A stretch of 26,721 nucleotides of DNA from a bacterium. Its GTDB lineage: Bacteria; Acidobacteriota; Blastocatellia; HR10. Numbering within the stretch: position 1 is the first letter of the stretch; each line of letters opens with the position of its first letter. The notes under the pieces are model-generated. The model was given only the letters and a program-made list of their open reading frames with translations. It did no database searches and had not been told where the DNA came from. Of this stretch, positions 1 through 8,009 are shown in pieces. Position numbers and translations under genes: made by a program. The stretch is taken from positions 1 to 26,721 of the forward strand of contig JBEPZV010000034.1 of assembly GCA_041640655.1 (NCBI GenBank), read 5' to 3'.

Positions 1-38
1 CAATCCCGATTTCGTGTATTCTCTCTACCGAACGCGGT

Positions 39-114
39 GGGGCTATAGCTCAGTTGGGAGAGCGCGTGAATGGCATTCACGAGGTCGCCGGTTCGAATCC
101 GGCTAGCTCCACCA
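39..114 (+). tRNA. tRNA-Ala (anticodon GGC)
   Basis: 76-nt GGGGCTATAGCTCAGTTGGGAGAGCG...GGTTCGAATCC...AGCTCCACCA. Anticodon stem CGTGA/TCACG with loop ATGGCAT (GGC at 72-74), G3:U70 alanine identity pair, encoded CCA. A -10-like TATTCT lies at 17-22. Confidence 0.98.
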
Positions 115-419
115 AGCGACCTTTTTTTATTGCCCCGATAATAAGCCGCCCAATGAAGATGGAGCCCACAGCTCCCTTCGACTGAGAACACCATGCGCTT
201 TTCTCGTGCGTCGGCGGGAGGCCGCCTCTGCAGGGTCGCCATCGGCGTCTCGCTGTGACCGGCCCGACATCATACTGCGTCAGGACGATATTTTCTCCTT
301 GATTTTTCGCCAAGCCGGATGGAAAATCCCCTTCGCCCCATATACCGGTGGGGAAGCGCGGGCCGACCTCGTCCAGAGGGCCTGCGCATGGAAAAAACCA
401 CACATGGAGGGAAGGAGCC

Positions 420-587
420 ATGACCCTGACGAAGTGGTTTATTCTGATCCTCTTGAGCCTGTTGATGGGCAGCTCATCCTGGTTCACGCGAGAGCCCGAT
501 CTGCGGACGCCCGGTCAGATCACGACAGCGAGCGATGGTTTGTGCTGCGCAGTAGGAGCCCCCTGCTGCTCGACCTCACCGAAGTAA
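420..587 (+). CDS. Small (55 aa) putative secreted cysteine-rich peptide, MTLTKWFILILLSLLMGSSSWFTREPDLRTPGQITTASDGLCCAVGAPCCSTSPK
   Basis: Internal ATG at 420 of ORF 348..587, preceded by a strong SD-rich tract (GGAGGGAAGGAG). It has a Lys plus hydrophobic signal-like N-terminus and a C-terminal CC-x5-CC motif. Its stop is 23 nt from the convergent CHAT gene stop. Confidence 0.7.
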   Translation: MTLTKWFILILLSLLMGSSSWFTREPDLRTPGQITTASDGLCCAVGAPCCSTSPK

Positions 588-610
588 ATCGCACCTCGTG
601 CGATCGCGCG

Positions 611-3598
611 CTAAGGTGATCCGATCACGATAAACGGCGCCCAGTAGAACGGAGCGAGTCCGCGCCGGATGAGCGCGAGTTTCGCCAAACGGAGGGCGTG
701 TGCCGTCGGGAGGCCGCGCGCGAGAAGACCTTCGTAAAATTTCGTCATCAGCACCTGTGTCGCCGCATCCTCGACTTTCCAGAGCGAGCCGCAGACGCGG
801 CGCGCCCCGGCCAACAGAAAAGCGCGGCCGAGCCCGATGACCGACTCCGCCTCTGTTCTTTGTCCGGTTCCGGTCTCGCATCCGCTCAGGACGACGAGAT
901 CGGCATCAAGCCGCAGACGCGCGATCTCGGCGGCGGTGAGGATGCCGTCATCGTCGTTGCAATCCTCTTTGAGACGAGCCCCCGGTTCCGATCGGCAATT
1001 CCCACCGACGAGCGAGAGGACGATGGCCGAGAGCTCTCCATCCTCCGCATCGGCGACGGCATGCGTCGCCAGATGCAGGAAGCGATAGGCCGTGAGATCG
1101 CGGCGCTTCACGTTCCCTTCGCTCGCTTCAAATCCGAGCCAGACGGTCGGACGGAGCCGATATCGCGCGCCCAGGGCAGCGATCTCTCGCACCTCGCGCT
1201 CCGTTGATGGGAGCCGATGCAGGCCGCTGCGAAGGCGTCCGCCAGCACTCATCGCGATGAGCGCGGAGGCGTTCTCTTGCTCATTCTTCTCCTTGGCCCG
1301 AGGATCGTCCGCGTTGAAGACGGGATCGCCGACAAGAAGCAGGCCGCTCTTGTGAACCGCCTGTTGGGGACGTCCCGTGACCTCGACGAGCACAGAGGCT
1401 GAAGGGGCGTATGCGATAGCATGCTCTTCGACGAGATAGCGCGCCCGCATGTTCTCCGTGTCGGGTGGGTTCACGACGAGCGCCTCAAAGGCCAGATTGT
1501 AGAGGGCGGCATCGGGGATGATGATCAGCTCGCGGCCGCGGATCAGCGGAGCAGCCGGTTGCACGAGCATTTGATAGAGCCGGTGAGCGGCTTCCGCGTA
1601 GGCGCGGAGGGCGTCTGCTGTGCGACCGGCCGCTGTGGCCTGTCGCCGAATGTGCGCGCGCCACTGGGCCACGGCATCACGGATCGTCGTCCAGTCGGGC
1701 AGCTTGAAGAGCCGAACCGAGTCTCGCGTGAGGACGATGAGGAAGCTCTCTTGAATGCCGAGTTGATAGAGGAGGACGGCCGTCTCGGGCCGCGCGGCCA
1801 GATACTCGCGTTGCACGCGCTCGGCCGTGAGTGGCGCGATCCACGCTTTCTCGGCGCGCTCGGCCACAGCATGGCGAATCCGGGCTTCCAGGCGAATGCG
1901 CTCGTTGAGCAGTCGAGCGCGCTCTTCTTCCAAACGATCCAGCTCCGACACATCCAGTGTCCCGCCGGCACGCGCGAAGACGATCTGACGGCCGAGCGCC
2001 GAGAGGCGATCAAGCAACGCACGCTCTTCCTCGAAGAGTTCGACCGCGCTTCGCGCCGAGGGGGTGATCTTCAAAGCCGCGAGCTGTTCCAGGAGCGAGC
2101 GGCTCCGGCTCCGCTCGGCGATGTCGAAAGCCTGACGCGCGTATTCGTCATGAGGATGGCGCGCGTAGAGGGCGTAGAGGCTCTGAACGATCTGCGTGGA
2201 GATCGCCTTCACTTGCGCGAGGAACCGTTGCCGCAGCTCCTCGATCGTCGCGCGCGCCCAGGCGCGCTCCATCACGCGCAGAGCTTCGGTGCACAATTGC
2301 AAGGCGGCTTCATGATTCCCCTTAAGAGATTCGGCGAAGGCCTGCATTTGTAAAGCCATTCGATAGGGGTCTGAGCCGTCATTCGGATCAATCAAAGTGA
2401 GGGCCTCGCGGGCCGAACGGATGATCCCTTCGGCATCTTTCAAGACGAAATACCCCACGCTCATCACGATGAGGAGTGCGCTCTCCTGGTCCCGGCACTC
2501 AAGACGGCGGGCGAGATCGCGGGCTTCGGCGGCGACGGCCAGTCCCTCCCGAACCTTTCCCGACATGATATATGCTTCGGCGAGTCGGGAGGCGACGAGT
2601 AGACGAAGCGTGGGATCGAGGCCATCGCGAAGAGCGTGCGCCCGCTCGGCGTACGCAATGGCGCGTTCTCTCTCCGAGAGGCGGAGGAAATCGAAGAGCG
2701 AGGCGTAGAGTCGGGCAAGCGGCGTGGGGTGTTTCAGGCGTTCGGCTCGCTCAAGCGCCTGGCGATAGTACACCGTGGCCGCATCATTGCGATCCAGGGA
2801 GCGATAGAGATCGCCCAGATGGGTGAGCGTGAGGGCCTCGGCGTATTCGGCAGCGCGCAAGCTCTTACCAAGGGCGAGCGTCCGCTCCAATTCGGCGATC
2901 GCTTGCTCGTAGTGCATGCGGCGGGCCAGAAGCGCCGCGCGCTCCATACCGATGGCCCATTGCCCGTAGCGGAAATCGGCGGCTTTCGCCGCGGCCAGGC
3001 TCTCGGTGTAGTGAGCTTCGGCTTCGGTCCAGCGCCGATGTTCCCGCAGATAGCGGCCGAGGGCCAGATGCAGCCAGCTTCGCGCGCGCCGATTCTGTCG
3101 GCTCTCGGCCCACTGGAGTCCACGCTGAACGTAGGCGAACACATCCGCCTCGCGCCAGAGGGGCTCATCGTCACCTGCGCGCAGCGCGATCCAGTAGGTA
3201 CCGTATTGATCAGCGTTCGCTCCGCAGACGATGGCCGTGTAGCGACCGGTAGTGGGCAACGTGGTGCGGATGCGGGCAGTGAAAAACCAATCGTCGTCTT
3301 CGCTCCAGGCGATCGGGCGCCCCCAAGGGCCGAGAAGTTGCAGCGAAGGGTCGAATTCGTAAGACGTGACCGTGAGGGTGATGCGCTGACCGGCCTCGGC
3401 CTCGAAGCTCCAGAAGTGCTTCGGCCCGCAGACGCCGCCCGGGGTGAACGAATCGTTGGGATGAAGGACACTCTCCTGCTGTTCGCCGAAGCGGATCGGT
3501 CGCGCCAGCGGGGCGCGCCAGCCGAGAATGAAGGCGAGGGTCGAGAGGCCGACCATCAGGCCGAGGATGAGCATTCGCCGCATGGCGCGATCCCTCAT
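611..3598 (-). CDS. Exported CHAT-domain (caspase/HetF-like) cysteine protease with N-terminal signal/TM, PPC-like domain and TPR array
   Basis: Hydrophobic N-terminus (MRRMLILGLMVGLSTLAFILGW); PPC-like segment (FEAEAGQRITLTVTSYEFDPSLQLLGP...LPTTGRYTAIV); TPR-like helices; CHAT motifs LIIIPDAALYNLAFEAL, FLHLATHA (catalytic His), LVVLSGCETG (catalytic Cys), GSLWKVED and PFYWAPF. ATGA overlap with the upstream anti-sigma; an alternative start is at 3583. Confidence 0.93.
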   Translation of the reverse strand: MRDRAMRRMLILGLMVGLSTLAFILGWRAPLARPIRFGEQQESVLHPNDSFTPGGVCGPKHFWSFEAEAGQRITLTVTSYEFDPSLQLLGPWGRPIAWSEDDDWFFTARIRTTLPTTGRYTAIVCGANADQYGTYWIALRAGDDEPLWREADVFAYVQRGLQWAESRQNRRARSWLHLALGRYLREHRRWTEAEAHYTESLAAAKAADFRYGQWAIGMERAALLARRMHYEQAIAELERTLALGKSLRAAEYAEALTLTHLGDLYRSLDRNDAATVYYRQALERAERLKHPTPLARLYASLFDFLRLSERERAIAYAERAHALRDGLDPTLRLLVASRLAEAYIMSGKVREGLAVAAEARDLARRLECRDQESALLIVMSVGYFVLKDAEGIIRSAREALTLIDPNDGSDPYRMALQMQAFAESLKGNHEAALQLCTEALRVMERAWARATIEELRQRFLAQVKAISTQIVQSLYALYARHPHDEYARQAFDIAERSRSRSLLEQLAALKITPSARSAVELFEEERALLDRLSALGRQIVFARAGGTLDVSELDRLEEERARLLNERIRLEARIRHAVAERAEKAWIAPLTAERVQREYLAARPETAVLLYQLGIQESFLIVLTRDSVRLFKLPDWTTIRDAVAQWRAHIRRQATAAGRTADALRAYAEAAHRLYQMLVQPAAPLIRGRELIIIPDAALYNLAFEALVVNPPDTENMRARYLVEEHAIAYAPSASVLVEVTGRPQQAVHKSGLLLVGDPVFNADDPRAKEKNEQENASALIAMSAGGRLRSGLHRLPSTEREVREIAALGARYRLRPTVWLGFEASEGNVKRRDLTAYRFLHLATHAVADAEDGELSAIVLSLVGGNCRSEPGARLKEDCNDDDGILTAAEIARLRLDADLVVLSGCETGTGQRTEAESVIGLGRAFLLAGARRVCGSLWKVEDAATQVLMTKFYEGLLARGLPTAHALRLAKLALIRRGLAPFYWAPFIVIGSP

Positions 3599-4410
3599 TT
3601 CACCGTGCCGAAGCGAAGGAGCTGGCGTCTGGCCTGTTCGGCTTCACGGCGGTAGACGCTGTTTTCCGCAATGAGCGTCTCCAGTTCGCGAAGGGCATCC
3701 TCGCGTTGGCCCGCGCGCGCATACGCGAGTGCCAGATGATACCGGCTGCGTTCCTGTTCCACGCCCACGCTGAGTTGAACGGCCCGACGCAAAGGGCCGA
3801 TGGCTTCCTGCGGGCGATCGAGCTGAAGCCAGGAAGCGCCTAAGTAGAAGTGCGCTTCGGCGTTCTCCGGCTCAAGCCGCACAATCGGCATGAGCAGTTC
3901 GATGGCTCGTACGAAGTCGCCTTTCTCGTAAGCGGAGAGCGCGCTCTCAAACGGCGTCCGCGTCTCCACGCTGCGCAACCGCGCGATCTGTTCGGGTGAG
4001 AGGGAGGATTTTGGGGCAGAAGGGGGTGCCTTCTCCGATGGGCCGATGTGCGCCATCTCCGGGGGCTTCTCGGGCGCGCGCAGCCAGAGCCAAGTCGTCA
4101 CGCCCACGCTCACGGCGATGAGGATCGCGGCGGCCCATGCGATGCGCCGCTTCTGCAGATGGGTCAGAAGGCGCATCTGCCAGAGCAGTTGTCTCGCTCT
4201 TGAGGCGCTCGCTTTCGAGGCCAAAGCCGCCTCGCGTTTGGCGCGCAGCAGGTCTGTGGCAGGTTCCAGCGCGTACAGCTCGGCATGGCAGAAGTCGCAC
4301 TGCGCGAGGTGGTCCAGGAATGCGTCCCGCTCCGAATCCTCCAACATGCCCAGCTCGTATTGCGGGAGCAACTGCCCGACTCGGGGATCTGTGCACCTCA
4401 GCTCGGACAT
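3595..4410 (-). CDS. Zinc-binding (zf-HC2/ZAS) transmembrane anti-sigma factor with C-terminal extracytoplasmic TPR repeats
   Basis: N-terminal C...LL..Y..G.L...E...F..HLAQCDFC (HxxxCxxC); one TM helix (IAWAAAILIAVSVGVTTWLWL); Pro-rich linker; TPRs (EPENAEAHFYLGASWLQLDRPQEAI; SRYHLALAYARAGQREDA). SD GAGGAGG. Lies directly downstream of an ECF sigma gene. Confidence 0.88.
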   Translation of the reverse strand: MSELRCTDPRVGQLLPQYELGMLEDSERDAFLDHLAQCDFCHAELYALEPATDLLRAKREAALASKASASRARQLLWQMRLLTHLQKRRIAWAAAILIAVSVGVTTWLWLRAPEKPPEMAHIGPSEKAPPSAPKSSLSPEQIARLRSVETRTPFESALSAYEKGDFVRAIELLMPIVRLEPENAEAHFYLGASWLQLDRPQEAIGPLRRAVQLSVGVEQERSRYHLALAYARAGQREDALRELETLIAENSVYRREAEQARRQLLRFGTVK

Positions 4411-4434
4411 ACTCGTGTCCTCCTCTGGCGGGGG

Positions 4435-5031
4435 TCACCACTCAATCCCCCACCGCTCCTTGAGCAGGCGCCGCAGGGTTCGGCGACTGCGATAGAGTAA
4501 GGTGTCGAATTGGTTCGAGGTGATGCCCAGGATTCGACACAGCTCCTTTTTGCTCAGTCCATTGCAAATCCCCCGAAGGACCACGGCATACTGAGGATTG
4601 ATCCGGTACAACTCATCGAGCGCCTGTTCGAGGATCCGCTCCAGCTCGAGCGCTTCCGGATTCGCCTCGATGCGGCAGGAACGGATCACCTCCTCCAGAG
4701 GAACCTCATGTGGATCCCGAGAGCGACGATACCGAGCGTGAACGCTGAGCCTGTTCCTCAATGCCCTCCGCGCGAGTCGCAACACATCCTCCCACGTCCG
4801 AAGCTTCGGGAGATGCTCGTGAACGGCGAGCATCGCCTCCTGAACGGTGTCTTCAACGTCCGCCGCGCGCAGGCCGAGGCCTTGCCTGTGCCGGGCGAGA
4901 GCGAGCAGGCGTTCCCGCAGGAAGGTGAAGATTTCCTCCAGCGCCTCATGCGATCCCTCTTGGGCTTGCCGCAGCAGCTCCGTCAGCTCGGCTCTCGTAT
5001 ATGCTCGAGCGGCTTTCTCAACGGCTTCCAT
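4435..5031 (-). CDS. ECF-family RNA polymerase sigma factor (198 aa)
   Basis: Region 2 (AQEGSHEALEEIF...DVEDTVQEAML) and region 4 HTH (GLSKKELCRILGITSNQFDTLLYRSRRTLRRLL). Start moved to ATG 5031 (MEAVEK) because a purine-rich SD precedes it and the predicted promoter lies at 5068-5097. Confidence 0.9.
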   Translation of the reverse strand: MEAVEKAARAYTRAELTELLRQAQEGSHEALEEIFTFLRERLLALARHRQGLGLRAADVEDTVQEAMLAVHEHLPKLRTWEDVLRLARRALRNRLSVHARYRRSRDPHEVPLEEVIRSCRIEANPEALELERILEQALDELYRINPQYAVVLRGICNGLSKKELCRILGITSNQFDTLLYRSRRTLRRLLKERWGIEW

Positions 5032-5067
5032 ACACCACCCCTTCTCCGACCGAGCGATTCGCGCGTT

Positions 5068-5097
5068 AGAATACCACACCCGGCGAGGGCGTGACAA
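5068..5097 (-). promoter_or_regulatory. Sigma-70-type promoter for the ECF/anti-sigma/CHAT operon
   Basis: Minus strand TTGTCA-N18-TATTCT with extended -10 TG, located in the comEC-sigma gap. Confidence 0.6.
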
Positions 5098-5117
5098 TGG
5101 GGGGATCTCCGGATGCT

Positions 5118-8009
5118 TCACAGGCGTTCCCGGCCATAGGGGCGAATCCGGACGGTTCGCCCATCGGTCATGAGGGTGATCATCCCCTGCTGCCCGGTGT
5201 GGAAGAGGGAGATCTCCCGGCGTTCGTATCGCTCTCGAACTTCGGGATGAGGGTAGCGGAAACGCCCGCCGGTTGTCGGATCAGCCGCCGAGAGGATCGC
5301 CCATCGGGGGCGAACGCGATTGAGGAAGGGATCGGAGCTGCTGGTCCGACTCCCGTGATGCGGGACCTTGAGGACATCGCTCCACAGGTCCCAGCCGGAG
5401 AAGAGCAAGGCCTCTTCGGCCGCGCGCTCGATGTCTCCCGGAAGCAGGATGGAGATGTCGCCGTACTGAAGTCGGAGGACGAGCGAGTCATCGTTTCCCC
5501 AGGTCTCCGGCTGTCGCGTCGTCGGTGGAGGCCAGAGAACGGTCATCGTGACCGGCGGGTCTCCGATCCTGAGGCGATCACCTTGTCCGAGGCTCAGAAG
5601 GGGAATACGCTTGCGCTCCGCCGCGCGCAGGAATGAGGCGAAGAGCGCATCTGACATCGGGCGTCGCGCCAAGAGCACGCCTCTGATCTCGAAGTTTCGG
5701 ATGACGTCTGTGAATCCGCGCAGGTGATCGGCATGAGCGTGCGTCGGGACCAGATAGTCGACGCGCTTGAGTCCTCGCGACCAGAGGAAGTTGGAGACGA
5801 CGGCCTCTCCGATCGGCGGGCGGTCTTCGAGGAATTCTGGTTCCCCATCATCGGACGACTCCCCGGCGGAGACGTCGGGAGAAGCGGGGCCGATCTCTCC
5901 ACCGGCATCCACGAGCATCGTCGTCCCGTCGGGGAATTCGATGAGGGCCGCGTCTCCATGTCCGACGTCGAGGAAATGGATGAGGAGCCATCCCTTCGGG
6001 CGAGCGGGCTCCAGAGGGTGGAGGACCAAAAACGCGAGGCTCAGGAGGAAAACGAGCGCGCTGCCCCACGAACGTGCTCGCCGCAGTGGGAGCCCTGCTC
6101 GCTGCTGCGATGGCGCTGGTCGAGCGGCCGGACGCGGGCGATCAAGTGGATGCCATGCGTGCAGCCGATACGCGAGGTAAAGGACCGGAGCCCAGTAGGC
6201 GAGGTAGACAAAGGCGCCGACGCCCGAATAATCCGGGGTGCGAAAGCTCAGCGCAGGGAATCGGAGCGCCAGGTCGGAGCTGGCGATCGTCGCTTCGGTG
6301 AGCGCGTGAGTGAGTTTGGCCAGTCCTGCCCCCCATTCCGGATGCCACAGTGCGAGCGCGAGCGTTCCGATGGCCGTCAGCCCCAGGAGAGCGACGAGCG
6401 CGCTGACGATCACGTTCAACGCGATGCCGATGAGCGCGACCCGGTGAAAGTATTCGACCATGAGGGGCAGCATCGCCAGTTGGACCGTGAGCGAGACGAG
6501 CAGCGAAATCGCGAGCGCGCGCACCAGAGGTTGGACGCGGAATCGGTTGAGCGCGCGGGCGAGATCGGCCTTCTCCAGTCGGAAGCGAATGGGGGAGCGT
6601 TGCTGCTCGCGCTGAAATCGCCGTTCGTTCCAAAAGAGGCATTCGGCGAACGCGCGGATGATCTCAGGGGCGCGCGGCGGATAGGGGTGATCGGGTGTCG
6701 GCTGCCAGCTGCCGATCGCTTGGAGCCGCGCCAGGAGTGGGATGACGAGCAGAGCCAGGCTGCCTGCAGCGGCGAAGGAGAGCTGAAATGAGGGGGAGAA
6801 GAGTTGCCGGGGATTGACGGCGAGCAGCACCAGTGCGGCGACCCCCAGGCTGTTCGCCACCGGAGCGTGTCGAAACAAGAGCGAGGCCAGCACGAGGGCC
6901 GTCACCATCATAGTCGCGCGCCAGACGGGCGGTTGCCCCCCGACCATGAGCGCATAACCCCACAGCGGGATGAGCGTGCCCAGTGCCCGCCCCAGAGGGC
7001 GTCGCGTGTACCACGAGATGATGCCGAAGAGCACGCCCGCCAAAAAGCCAATGTGCAGCCCGGAGATGACCAGCAGGTGAAATGTCCCTGCGGCGCGAAA
7101 CGCTTCCGCTGCGCGCGCATCGAGGAAATGCCGGTTTCCCAAGAGGAGGGCTTTCACGAGTCCCGCCGTTCGAGGCCCAGCGTCTTGAAAGACCCGGTCC
7201 ACCTCCTGCTCCAGCATCTCCTTCGCATCAAAGAGCGGCGCCAGAAGGCGCGCGATGAGTCGTTCCGTGACCCCGGGCTGCCAGGTGTGCGCGCACGGCA
7301 TCGCGTGCCGAAGGCCCTCCGGAGGTGGAGACACGTCGAGTGGCTCGATGAGGCGTGGGCTCTTGCTCACGGCCGGGAGGTCGTACCCCCGCAGTTCCAA
7401 ATACTCATCGTGGGGTGGCGATCCAGGATTTTGGTATCGCTCGGGCCGCGCGATGCGCACGAGCGCTTGAAGGCGTTGGCCGTAGCGCAGCCCCAATCGT
7501 TCATATGCGGCTTGCGCGTCTGGATCCCCCGCGATGACCATGAGCCGGAGGCGACCGCTCGCGCACACGGTGCGTCCGAAGGTGGCGACGTGCTCGACGT
7601 CGAGATCAAGATAAACCCTTCCCGGCGCGCGCTCGGGCGGGGCTGCGAGTCGCCCGATCACGCGCGCGGGTTCGCCGGCGGCGAGAAGTCCTCGGTCGTA
7701 AAGCGCGCGCAGGCGATGCGGAGTGACGCGCCCCTCCACGACCTGAAGGTGGACGATTCCGGCCAGGCCGTAACCGACGAGGATCAAGGGAACGAATGCG
7801 CGGGAATCCCGCATGCGAATGCTGAGAAGCCAGATGCTCGCGGCAGTCGCCCCCCAGAGGATCGGGCGGGCCGGGAGCATTCGACCGAGGGCGATCCCCA
7901 CGGCGAAAGCGGCGGCCAGAAAGAGCATGGGCTGGCATCGCGGATGCAGTGGGGCGAAGCGATGAGCTTCGACCGAGGGCGGAGCTGGCTCCGAACGCGA
8001 AGGGATCAC
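5118..8009 (-). CDS. comEC: ComEC/Rec2 DNA uptake channel (DUF4131/OB, competence and metallo-beta-lactamase domains)
   Basis: Motifs YQNPG, ALLLG, GTFHLLVISGLHIG, FQLSF, FLDVGHGDAALI, THAHADH, NDDSLVLRL, LKVPHHGSRTSS and YPHPEV, with many TM segments. ATGA overlap with the helicase stop. Confidence 0.95.
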   Translation of the reverse strand: MIPSRSEPAPPSVEAHRFAPLHPRCQPMLFLAAAFAVGIALGRMLPARPILWGATAASIWLLSIRMRDSRAFVPLILVGYGLAGIVHLQVVEGRVTPHRLRALYDRGLLAAGEPARVIGRLAAPPERAPGRVYLDLDVEHVATFGRTVCASGRLRLMVIAGDPDAQAAYERLGLRYGQRLQALVRIARPERYQNPGSPPHDEYLELRGYDLPAVSKSPRLIEPLDVSPPPEGLRHAMPCAHTWQPGVTERLIARLLAPLFDAKEMLEQEVDRVFQDAGPRTAGLVKALLLGNRHFLDARAAEAFRAAGTFHLLVISGLHIGFLAGVLFGIISWYTRRPLGRALGTLIPLWGYALMVGGQPPVWRATMMVTALVLASLLFRHAPVANSLGVAALVLLAVNPRQLFSPSFQLSFAAAGSLALLVIPLLARLQAIGSWQPTPDHPYPPRAPEIIRAFAECLFWNERRFQREQQRSPIRFRLEKADLARALNRFRVQPLVRALAISLLVSLTVQLAMLPLMVEYFHRVALIGIALNVIVSALVALLGLTAIGTLALALWHPEWGAGLAKLTHALTEATIASSDLALRFPALSFRTPDYSGVGAFVYLAYWAPVLYLAYRLHAWHPLDRPRPAARPAPSQQRAGLPLRRARSWGSALVFLLSLAFLVLHPLEPARPKGWLLIHFLDVGHGDAALIEFPDGTTMLVDAGGEIGPASPDVSAGESSDDGEPEFLEDRPPIGEAVVSNFLWSRGLKRVDYLVPTHAHADHLRGFTDVIRNFEIRGVLLARRPMSDALFASFLRAAERKRIPLLSLGQGDRLRIGDPPVTMTVLWPPPTTRQPETWGNDDSLVLRLQYGDISILLPGDIERAAEEALLFSGWDLWSDVLKVPHHGSRTSSSDPFLNRVRPRWAILSAADPTTGGRFRYPHPEVRERYERREISLFHTGQQGMITLMTDGRTVRIRPYGRERL

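Follow-up and report, generated by a model that had tools for sequence, protein, structure and literature searches.

A four-gene locus of a hot-spring acidobacterium in which a TPR-CHAT protease and a cysteine-tailed peptide may control an ECF sigma factor

The 26.7-kb contig JBEPZV010000034.1, which was analysed over its entire length (the window) and comes from a 3.1-Mb metagenome-assembled genome, carries near one end the genes for a sigma factor of the extracytoplasmic function (ECF) type, a putative zinc-binding anti-sigma factor, a TPR-CHAT protein with an intact protease dyad and a small peptide with four cysteines in its tail (Table 1). Hot-spring metagenomes contain DNA that is near-identical to the window, and in this hot-spring acidobacterium the locus probably serves to convert an external signal, through proteolysis, into gene expression. 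We propose, with a probability that we put at roughly 0.45, that the locus is related to the DdvA/DdvS switch of Myxococcus xanthus, is split into four parts and forms a system in which a protease set by the peptide cuts the anti-sigma factor.

Regulated proteolysis of the anti-sigma factor is the natural reading of the locus, and the proposed mechanism has the following steps. The anti-sigma factor would use its zinc-binding domain to hold the ECF sigma factor at the membrane, with its linker and three TPRs in the periplasm, and a separate, N-terminally anchored TPR-CHAT protease, similar to separase or craspase, would share that compartment. The cysteine tail of the self-made peptide, which could be Sec-exported or membrane-tethered, would fill the TPR groove of the protease, and protease activity would be set by whether the peptide is there, is gone, has been displaced or carries altered cysteines. 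Once active, the protease would make a site-1 cut in the periplasmic linker of the anti-sigma factor, for which the motif PK...LR[S/G] at residues 132-147 is the candidate site, and an RseP-type intramembrane protease would then release the sigma factor.

Table 1. Positions of the genes, promoter candidates and protein parts discussed in the text (window positions unless residues or another locus are named; sORF, small open reading frame; aa, amino acids; nt, nucleotides)
Feature	Position	Strand	Description
tRNA-Ala	39-114		
Peptide-gene promoter candidate, sigma-70-type	299..327	+	-35 TTGATT 299-304, 17-nt spacer, -10 GAAAAT 322-327
Peptide gene (sORF)	420..587	+	55 aa; GGAGG/AGGAG directly upstream
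CHAT protease gene	611..3598	-	995 aa; Pfam CHAT E 3.9e-65, residues 669-994; TPR matches
Anti-sigma gene (putative)	3595..4410	-	271 aa; zinc motif, one transmembrane segment, linker, three TPRs
ECF sigma gene	4435..5031	-	198 aa; ECF profiles above cut-off
Operon promoter candidate, sigma-70-type	5068..5097	-	TTGTCA, 18-nt spacer, TG-extended TATTCT
CHAT protein, hydrophobic N-terminus	residues 6-28		preceded by four Arg
CHAT model, N-terminal helix	residues 3-25		
CHAT model, beta-sandwich (PPC-like)	residues 39-141		
CHAT model, TPR superhelix	residues 150-480		
CHAT model, two long helices (coiled-coil)	after the TPR superhelix, before the CHAT domain		
CHAT model, alpha/beta CHAT domain	residues 606-995		
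Cys-rich, Lys/Asp/His-rich small proteins in other loci	L099 6948-7307; L102 7109-7372; L101 6005-6409		away from CHAT genes

The sigma and anti-sigma genes are separated by a gap of 24 nt that contains GAGGAGG, the anti-sigma stop codon and the CHAT start codon share an ATGA overlap, and 23 nt lie between the convergent stops of the CHAT gene and the peptide sORF. A first-pass annotation of the window had described this layout, and every element of it lies where that annotation had placed it. The peptide ends in the motif CC-x2-G-x2-CC, in which five residues separate the two cysteine pairs, and a CC-x5-CC pattern was found in only one of the 228 open reading frames (ORFs) of 30-140 aa in the window; given this rarity and the recurrence of the arrangement in 19 loci, the four-gene layout exceeds chance. 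The spacer between the convergent stops (588-610) holds a short inverted repeat, TCGCAC-CTC-GTGCGA, and related strains have a 13-nt insertion at 608/609.

These 19 loci are every reachable locus with a complete CHAT 3′ end: 6 from the genus, 8 from the class (G007, G010 twice, G137, G167, G185, G188 and G200) and 5 from another family of the phylum, the last coming from three genomes (G410 twice, G428 and G443 twice). Left out were G004, whose locus is spread across a pair of contigs, and two loci of G011 that are cut by contig ends, while L080 and G137:C125 are an identical stretch that was counted once. In all 19 loci, the peptide gene and the CHAT gene are convergent, and the gap to the CHAT stop is 21-163 nt in 18 of them and 1308 nt in G007. 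Sigma and anti-sigma genes are adjacent in 17 loci, in 14 directly upstream and on the same strand and in 3 (G010:C103, G443:C36 and G410:C43) divergent from the CHAT gene, and in all 17 the anti-sigma factor and the CHAT protein are encoded by separate genes. The peptide gene thus goes with the protease gene, which in most loci goes with the sigma pair. The first-pass annotation had suggested that such loci be collected across genomes and their flanks be scanned for sORFs; the four genes form a conserved module, and a convergent peptide gene was present at each of the 19 CHAT loci.

In rearranged loci, the peptide gene tracks the CHAT gene and not the anti-sigma gene, which favours a contact between peptide and protease over one between the peptide and the TPRs of the anti-sigma factor. 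In the sister genus (genome G007), for instance, the sigma and anti-sigma genes (L048, C54) and the CHAT and peptide genes (L054, C93) are found on different contigs. Three genomes carry two CHAT/peptide systems each (L051/L067 in G010, L110/L112 in G410 and L108/L109 in G443), and both the peptide tails and the groove residues clearly differ between the paralogues, which fits insulated parallel channels.

The peptide of the window begins with a basic residue and a hydrophobic segment (residues 1-21), continues with a Pro/Thr-rich linker and carries the tail cysteines at C42, C43, C49 and C50. It is kept in the same position in all 6 other genomes of the genus at 84-95% amino acid identity, which is higher than the 60-95% of the anti-sigma factor in the same genomes. 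Across 15 pairs within the genus, the ratio of nonsynonymous to synonymous substitution rates (dN/dS) is 0.06-0.30, and the differences at codon positions 1:2:3 number 125:33:228. A profile built on 11 copies and run against 1.84 billion representative proteins matched 36 of them at E <= 1e-3, of which 35 are 53-79 aa long and have the same build. Only M1 and the four cysteines are invariant columns in the resulting alignment of 43 sequences. Members of the family have a basic residue at about position 5, then a ~13-residue hydrophobic stretch and a linker of 22-36 residues that varies and is rich in Pro, Gln and Ser; the CC-x2-G-x2-CC motif comes next, and a short end of variable sequence closes the peptide. 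Thus, the ORF that had been proposed as a peptide gene is a genuine gene under selection, as indicated by its dN/dS, its four invariant cysteines and the 35 further clusters.

All 19 peptides have a basic residue in the first 7 positions followed by a hydrophobic stretch, and a Shine-Dalgarno-like motif precedes a suitable start in all 19 loci by a lenient count in which the start was chosen to have one. Small residues (GSSS) follow the hydrophobic region in the peptide of the window, and many homologues have a Pro there (A-S/G-P-x-W), a residue that disfavours signal-peptidase cleavage at this position. Judged by eye, many members of the family are without an obvious signal-peptidase site, and such peptides may therefore remain tethered to the membrane.

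The family is absent from the common libraries: the peptide matched 0 families in Pfam, only chance-level models in NCBIfam (E 0.07-0.1) and nothing in PADLOC, and a query of the ESM Atlas gave a best score of 0.83, which is under the meaningful level, and no structure. No paralogue was found in its own genome, where the second-best match had an E of 0.52. In the 401 class genomes sampled, there were 15 strong matches (all E <= 5.2e-8), and in the 401 phylum genomes sampled there were 5 (all E <= 1.8e-10), and every one of them adjoins a CHAT orthologue. Since only 14 of the 401 class genomes and 4 of the 401 phylum genomes contain it, the peptide family is narrow in its distribution. Weak matches to the profile occurred at 7 places (E 8.8e-6 to 6.6e-4; G341, G130, G264, G397, G344, G076 and G026), of which the first four were inspected; none of these four stands beside a CHAT orthologue, and three are another kind of Cys-rich peptide. 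Such weak matches revealed, in other Blastocatellia, signal-bearing and very Cys-rich small proteins of a different kind that are also rich in Lys, Asp and His and have CC, CCC and CCCC runs; these proteins (L099, L101 and L102; Table 1) look like metal binders.

The protein encoded by the CHAT gene scores 220.6 bits with the Pfam CHAT model, and its N-terminus consists of four Arg followed by a hydrophobic stretch of 19 residues. Its AlphaFold model was made from a 7-sequence alignment and has a mean predicted local distance difference test (pLDDT) score of 72.4 and a predicted template modelling (pTM) score of 0.66. The catalytic dyad, H846 and C907 (the latter in ...SGCETG...), is invariant in all 33 aligned orthologues and in all 19 loci, as the first-pass annotation had led us to expect when it called the dyad intact. 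With a domain bearing a His-Cys dyad placed after a TPR superhelix, the protein can be classed from sequence and model as a TPR-CHAT protease. The domain order PPC-TPR-CHAT given in the first-pass annotation was borne out for TPR and CHAT, which Pfam recognises; PPC is only a tentative assignment, with a beta-sandwich in the model and sub-threshold matches to PF04151 (20.4, 20.5 and 23.3 bits against a cut-off of 25.9, over nearly the full profile, in the three orthologues tested). The protease, the sensor part of the anti-sigma factor and the peptide are all predicted to face the outside, in agreement with the shared extracytoplasmic compartment that had been proposed for them.

The CHAT orthologue group comprises 28 clusters at >=43% identity and >=94% coverage, below which come generic TPR-CHAT proteins, and it is as narrow as the peptide family. 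The 13 of these 28 clusters that have a source name are called only 'CHAT domain-containing protein' or 'hypothetical protein'. One public record with a 73%-identical copy (L074) is labelled uncultured Clostridia, a label that looks doubtful, and other records of the family are labelled Acidobacteriota/Blastocatellia or 'bacterium HR08/HR10'. A search of PDB sequences with the CHAT profile at E <= 0.01 gave TPR matches only (LGN and others) and no CHAT chain. At the level of structure, Foldseek matched the CHAT model to Csx29 (E 2.3e-11), to DdvA (8rw5, E 3.8e-9; 8rot, E 1.4e-8) and also to separase. VIA aligned it to Csx29 over 556-592 residues with Z 17-19 and a root-mean-square deviation of ~6 A, and to separase chains with Z 17-18. 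The TPR part matched the peptide-binding TPRs of Rap, NprR and LGN with Z ~18-21; the matches include Rap and NprR complexes with peptides (8rsu, 4gyo, 6t46 and 4gpk among them), and Z values of this size are common among helical repeats.

As for the sigma factor, it scores above the cut-off with both Pfam Sigma70_ECF (35.3 bits against 21.1) and TIGR02937 (50.9 against 42.9), and none of the ECF subgroup models reached its cut-off, the best being TIGR02999 (40.3 against 126). With regions 2 and 4 only and a length of ~200 aa, it has the sequence characteristics of an ECF (group IV) sigma factor. Its start is the ATG at 5031, which is common to the orthologues. The mechanical ORF begins further upstream, at a GTG at 5121 that overlaps the stop of a ComEC/Rec2-like gene (5118..8009), and the conserved operon promoter falls inside this longer ORF.

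The product of the next gene contains a zinc motif made of C6 and H34-x3-C38-x2-C41, and the pattern C...H-x3-C-x2-C is present in all 18 orthologues; the Pfam zf-HC2 model gives 21.4 bits against a cut-off of 22.2. A single hydrophobic, presumably transmembrane segment (90-112) is followed by a Pro-rich linker (111-150) and by TPRs (~150-260). On these features, it qualifies as a class I zinc anti-sigma (ZAS) protein, with inhibition of the sigma factor as its putative activity. An alignment of the 18 orthologues reveals a conserved linear motif, ...PK-A-x-Y-x-P...L-R-[S/G], at residues 132-147 (window 3970-4017) in a linker that is otherwise variable, and this motif is a candidate protease site or docking motif. 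The TPRs have weak sequence matches to receptors of C-terminal peptides, for example PEX5 (E 2.4e-10 and weaker).

The contact between peptide and protease was examined by predicting the complex of CHAT residues 36-995 (33-row alignment) with peptide residues 17-55 (43-row alignment). The three runs scored 0.69, 0.02 and 0.79, whereas the best of 3 controls scored 0.02; the median of 0.69 is a mark reached by 116 of 157 solved complexes and by 2 of 215 mismatched pairs, counts that hold only roughly here, as custom alignments were used. In the best run, the Cys tail (peptide residues 38-55) lies in the concave face of the TPR superhelix, against residues 303-472, and also reaches the beginning of the CHAT domain, where it contacts residues 613-616, 636-640 and 697-698. 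Among the loci, the identity of the peptide tails tracks that of the interface columns beyond the overall identity of the CHAT proteins (partial r 0.29, a value reached by 5 of 1000 random column sets). The peptide tail is thus predicted to occupy the TPR groove of the protease.

Among known systems, the closest in its workings appears to be DdvA/DdvS. In the passages of the DdvA paper that we draw on, DdvA has a zinc anti-sigma domain and one transmembrane helix, from which a linker described as flexible leads to a large TPR-CHAT part in the periplasm with a resting His/Cys dyad (PMC11506125). It is proposed there that a signal makes the CHAT domain clip the linker and that RseP then degrades the remainder, truncated DdvA being RseP-sensitive, and the regulated intramembrane proteolysis of anti-sigma factors is described as well (PMC11506125). 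Those passages describe no peptide partner and name no triggering signal (PMC11506125). The locus shares with DdvA/DdvS, as described there, an ECF sigma factor, a zinc-binding N-terminal anti-sigma domain, a single transmembrane segment, a periplasmic linker and a TPR-CHAT part with a His/Cys dyad. In contrast to DdvA, the anti-sigma factor, which has a small TPR domain itself, and the TPR-CHAT part are two proteins here, each with a membrane segment; the CHAT protein has an N-terminal PPC-like beta-sandwich and is accompanied by a conserved gene for a Cys-tailed peptide; and the system belongs to Acidobacteriota rather than Myxococcota, with a match in structure and none in sequence (PDB, E <= 0.01).

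These differences place the locus outside the DdvA type, because the fused ZASD-TM-TPR-CHAT polypeptide (zinc anti-sigma domain, transmembrane helix, TPR and CHAT) is replaced by two genes with an ATGA overlap that are separate in 17/17 loci, because the match in sequence is missing and because the 26.7-kb contig contains no adjacent CBASS or CRISPR island of the kind that DdvA-type systems control. By analogy, we propose that the locus would work most like DdvA, with a protease acting in trans and a genetically linked ligand. The literature that we searched, which does not cover most subscription journals, yielded no description of the module or of the peptide. The first-pass annotation knew of no characterised example with such a peptide; this overlooks DdvA/DdvS as a characterised relative and agrees with the absence of a peptide partner from the passages on DdvA.

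Both promoter candidates of the locus are of the sigma-70 type. For the peptide gene, the hexamers and their spacing are kept in 6/6 upstream regions of the same genus while the flanking sequence diverges (alignment judged by eye), and a consensus promoter scan missed this site. The operon promoter is the only promoter-like site in a scan of 1..5300, where 0.7 would be expected by chance, and it is conserved in 6/6 upstream regions of the genus. Between the tRNA-Ala gene and the region of the peptide promoter, two DNA runs from other samples omit or substitute ~116-120 nt, which makes positions 127-248 strain-variable.

Evidence on transcription comes from assembled contigs of one metatranscriptome of a related strain that is ~90-95% alike, which are strandless, may include DNA and have depths that cannot rank genes. 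The peptide gene is covered from 393 to 574 at a word depth of 87-101, and the three genes of the operon (CHAT, anti-sigma and sigma) are overlain by five contigs with depths of 2.3-7.9, a contrast that is a hint of expression and not proof. Stretches of the CHAT gene that no RNA contig covers carry no information. One further contig spans 494-1112, from the 3′ part of the peptide gene into the 3′ end of the CHAT gene, and this bridge, together with the convergent layout of all 19 loci, raises the possibility of read-through or antisense coupling.

Several points weigh against the proposal of a peptide-set protease that cuts the anti-sigma factor. The genes with their conservation and linkage, the selection on the peptide and the intact dyad are observed, and the topology and the groove contact are predicted; the cleavage of the anti-sigma factor, the follow-up cut within the membrane and the trigger are what we infer. 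Even for DdvA, autoproteolysis has only been proposed, and dyad mutants were like the wild type under the conditions tested, according to the same passages (PMC11506125). One of the three complex runs failed, the pLDDT of the partner was 30-52 and the runs share only >=13% of their contacts. Conservation at the interface is no higher than in the remaining TPR region (0.589 against 0.662), and 9445 of 10000 random subsets reach the observed value. The first-pass annotation had called for complex predictions, and for this pair the outcome is divided: the median stands well apart from the control, against which must be set the failed run and an interface that is not extra-conserved. The covariation between tail and interface lends weak support, because the 19 loci are related, 6 of them belong to one genus and phylogeny can inflate such values. 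In two of the 19 loci (G007:C93 and G443:C24), the sigma and anti-sigma genes are absent from the flank that was fetched. Finally, a two-block word search for an ECF-type promoter in 15 sigma upstream regions found nothing common to more than 4 of them, the promoter search identified no regulon for the sigma factor, and the peptide gene and the sigma operon have no promoter motif in common.

The alternative that survives best, which we nevertheless consider unlikely, is that CHAT protein and peptide form a self-contained pair of protease and guard, similar to securin or to an immunity protein, that would be an output or a neighbour of the sigma system rather than its sensor, with possible roles such as the turnover of envelope proteins or antagonism. 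ECF operons often include genes of their own regulon, the two loci without an adjacent sigma pair would be expected under this alternative, and homologues of the sigma and anti-sigma genes without a CHAT gene do exist, as in G007:C54. The depth of the peptide RNA (87-101 against 2-8 for the operon, from contigs only) would also fit a stoichiometric inhibitor. Nevertheless, sigma and anti-sigma genes adjoin the CHAT gene in 17/19 loci from two classes and in two gene orders, which argues for functional coupling, and the operon promoter looks like one of the sigma-70 type rather than an ECF-dependent one, so that the CHAT gene is not marked as an ECF target. In addition, the one characterised relative fuses the same domains into a single anti-sigma factor, as far as the passages on it describe (PMC11506125).

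A guarding function is also compatible with the peptide-set protease that we favour. In fact, we lean slightly, by little more than even odds, towards a peptide that acts as a resident guard or cofactor, similar to securin, rather than as a diffusible activator, because its gene has its own conserved sigma-70-type promoter, because of the hint from RNA depth and because an exporter, a maturase and a feedback promoter are all missing. It is a matter of speculation whether the redox or metal state of the four cysteines, in an oxidising compartment, is the signal.

Somewhat less probable than the self-contained pair is a scheme, the second option of the first-pass annotation, in which the peptide is a pro-signal and a substrate of the CHAT protease. 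The protease would cut the linker of the precursor, whether tethered or exported, and the released Cys-knob would be sensed by the three-TPR domain of the anti-sigma factor, so that the loop would be autocrine or similar to quorum sensing. Such a cut could fall in the 22-36 residues, variable and rich in Pro and Gln, that separate the hydrophobic segment from the invariant tail, the predicted docking of the tail near the start of the CHAT domain (613-616, 636-640 and 697-698) resembles an exosite, the anti-sigma TPRs have the weak similarity to PEX5 mentioned above, and the divergent tails of genomes with two systems could be insulated pairs of signal and receptor. Against this, no linker residue is conserved across the 43 peptides, where only M1 and the four cysteines are invariant, the peptide gene tracks the CHAT gene and not the anti-sigma gene, and no promoter motif that would provide feedback is common to the peptide gene and the sigma operon. 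Behind the Cys motif, both the length and the sequence of the peptides are variable, which makes a PEX5-like read-out of the C-terminus unlikely. The quorum-sensing or kin-recognition circuit of the first-pass annotation is not supported: the locus has no gene for an exporter, a maturase or an importer, the conserved sigma-70-type promoter of the peptide gene shares no motif with the sigma operon, and the many peptides without an obvious signal-peptidase site (by eye) may be tethered.

It is very improbable that the sORF arose by chance or is an RNA element, cis-acting or antisense, of the CHAT 3′ end. A role in termination or antisense control would suit its position, which is strictly convergent and 21-163 nt away from the CHAT stop, and the bridging RNA contig would agree with this, but the dN/dS and third-position bias nearly exclude a non-coding sORF, the four cysteines do not vary although the nucleotide sequences of the two classes have diverged, a Shine-Dalgarno-like motif precedes the start in 19/19 loci (lenient count) and gene callers independently predicted 35 homologous peptides in public data.

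If the peptide-set protease is taken as the working model, its parts can be compared with those of other systems. In RseA/DegS/RseP, a PDZ serine protease activated by a peptide-like signal makes the periplasmic site-1 cut in a single-pass anti-sigma factor, and an intramembrane site-2 cut follows; here, the candidate for the site-1 cut is a cysteine protease of the caspase fold that senses through TPRs, and its candidate ligand is encoded in the locus. RRNPP receptors such as Rap and NprR are cytoplasmic proteins of Firmicutes that respond to a re-imported, Phr-type peptide and have a helix-turn-helix or phosphatase output. The likeness lies in a TPR superhelix whose groove takes up a short peptide that the cell itself makes and exports, as predicted here; the locus does not belong to this group, as the protein with the TPRs carries a membrane or signal segment at its N-terminus and has a protease as its output, and the similarity is confined to the fold. 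Separase, a eukaryotic enzyme of the cytoplasm or nucleus, is held in check by securin. Both separase-securin and the locus combine a large protease of the CHAT family, with TPR-like repeats, and a small partner along the helical repeats, inhibition by the peptide being only our lean; unlike securin, the partner is a Cys-knob peptide and not a long disordered pseudosubstrate. The separase-securin pair is mentioned in passages of the DdvA paper (PMC11506125).

Type III-E craspase, as outlined in part of the source on it, comprises Csx29, which is a TPR-CHAT protein, Csx30 and CASP-sigma (PMC10028731). There too, an allosterically activated TPR-CHAT protease acts on an inhibitor that binds a sigma factor, and Csx29 is the best structural match to the CHAT model. 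However, craspase is cytoplasmic and RNA-guided by Cas7-11, whereas the protease described here has a peptide as its partner and a predicted location outside the cytoplasm. The CHAT protein is not Csx29 itself (NCBIfam NF041237, 12.8 bits against a cut-off of 300), and no cas genes were seen in the window. A CHAT/TPR protein is also conserved beside the ECF sigma factors of group ECF54, for which proteolytic control has been proposed (PMC8999054; PMC7826278 supplement). In the parts of these sources that we used, ECF54 is 100% actinobacterial and has no anti-sigma factor, a subtilase and a carboxypeptidase-regulatory-like protein accompany it, and no peptide is mentioned (PMC8999054; PMC7826278). 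As ECF54 is actinobacterial and has no anti-sigma factor, it was ruled out as the identity of the locus.

The rest of the window contains genes for ComEC, a UvrD-type helicase, succinyl-CoA synthetase beta, PFK, aconitase and similar proteins. No CBASS or CRISPR genes were found in its 26.7 kb, and PADLOC returned a single, generic TPR match.

To sum up what the locus may contribute, it defines an unnamed family of micro-proteins in which a membrane or signal segment at the N-terminus is combined with a CC-x2-G-x2-CC tail and which the standard libraries of protein families have missed. Tentatively, and with clearly less confidence than we have in the switch as a whole, we suggest that this four-cysteine micro-protein is a dedicated ligand, either guard or activator and responsive to redox state, metal or occupancy, of a periplasmic separase-like site-1 protease for a zinc anti-sigma factor. 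DdvA/DdvS is the one studied example of periplasmic TPR-CHAT control of an ECF sigma factor. The locus separates the sensor protease from the anti-sigma factor and adds a linked candidate ligand, which results in three small parts that can be expressed separately. If the proposal is true, this would be the first known pair of protease and ligand that gates an ECF sigma factor through a caspase-fold enzyme, and it would point to the kind of signal that DdvA-like modules read.

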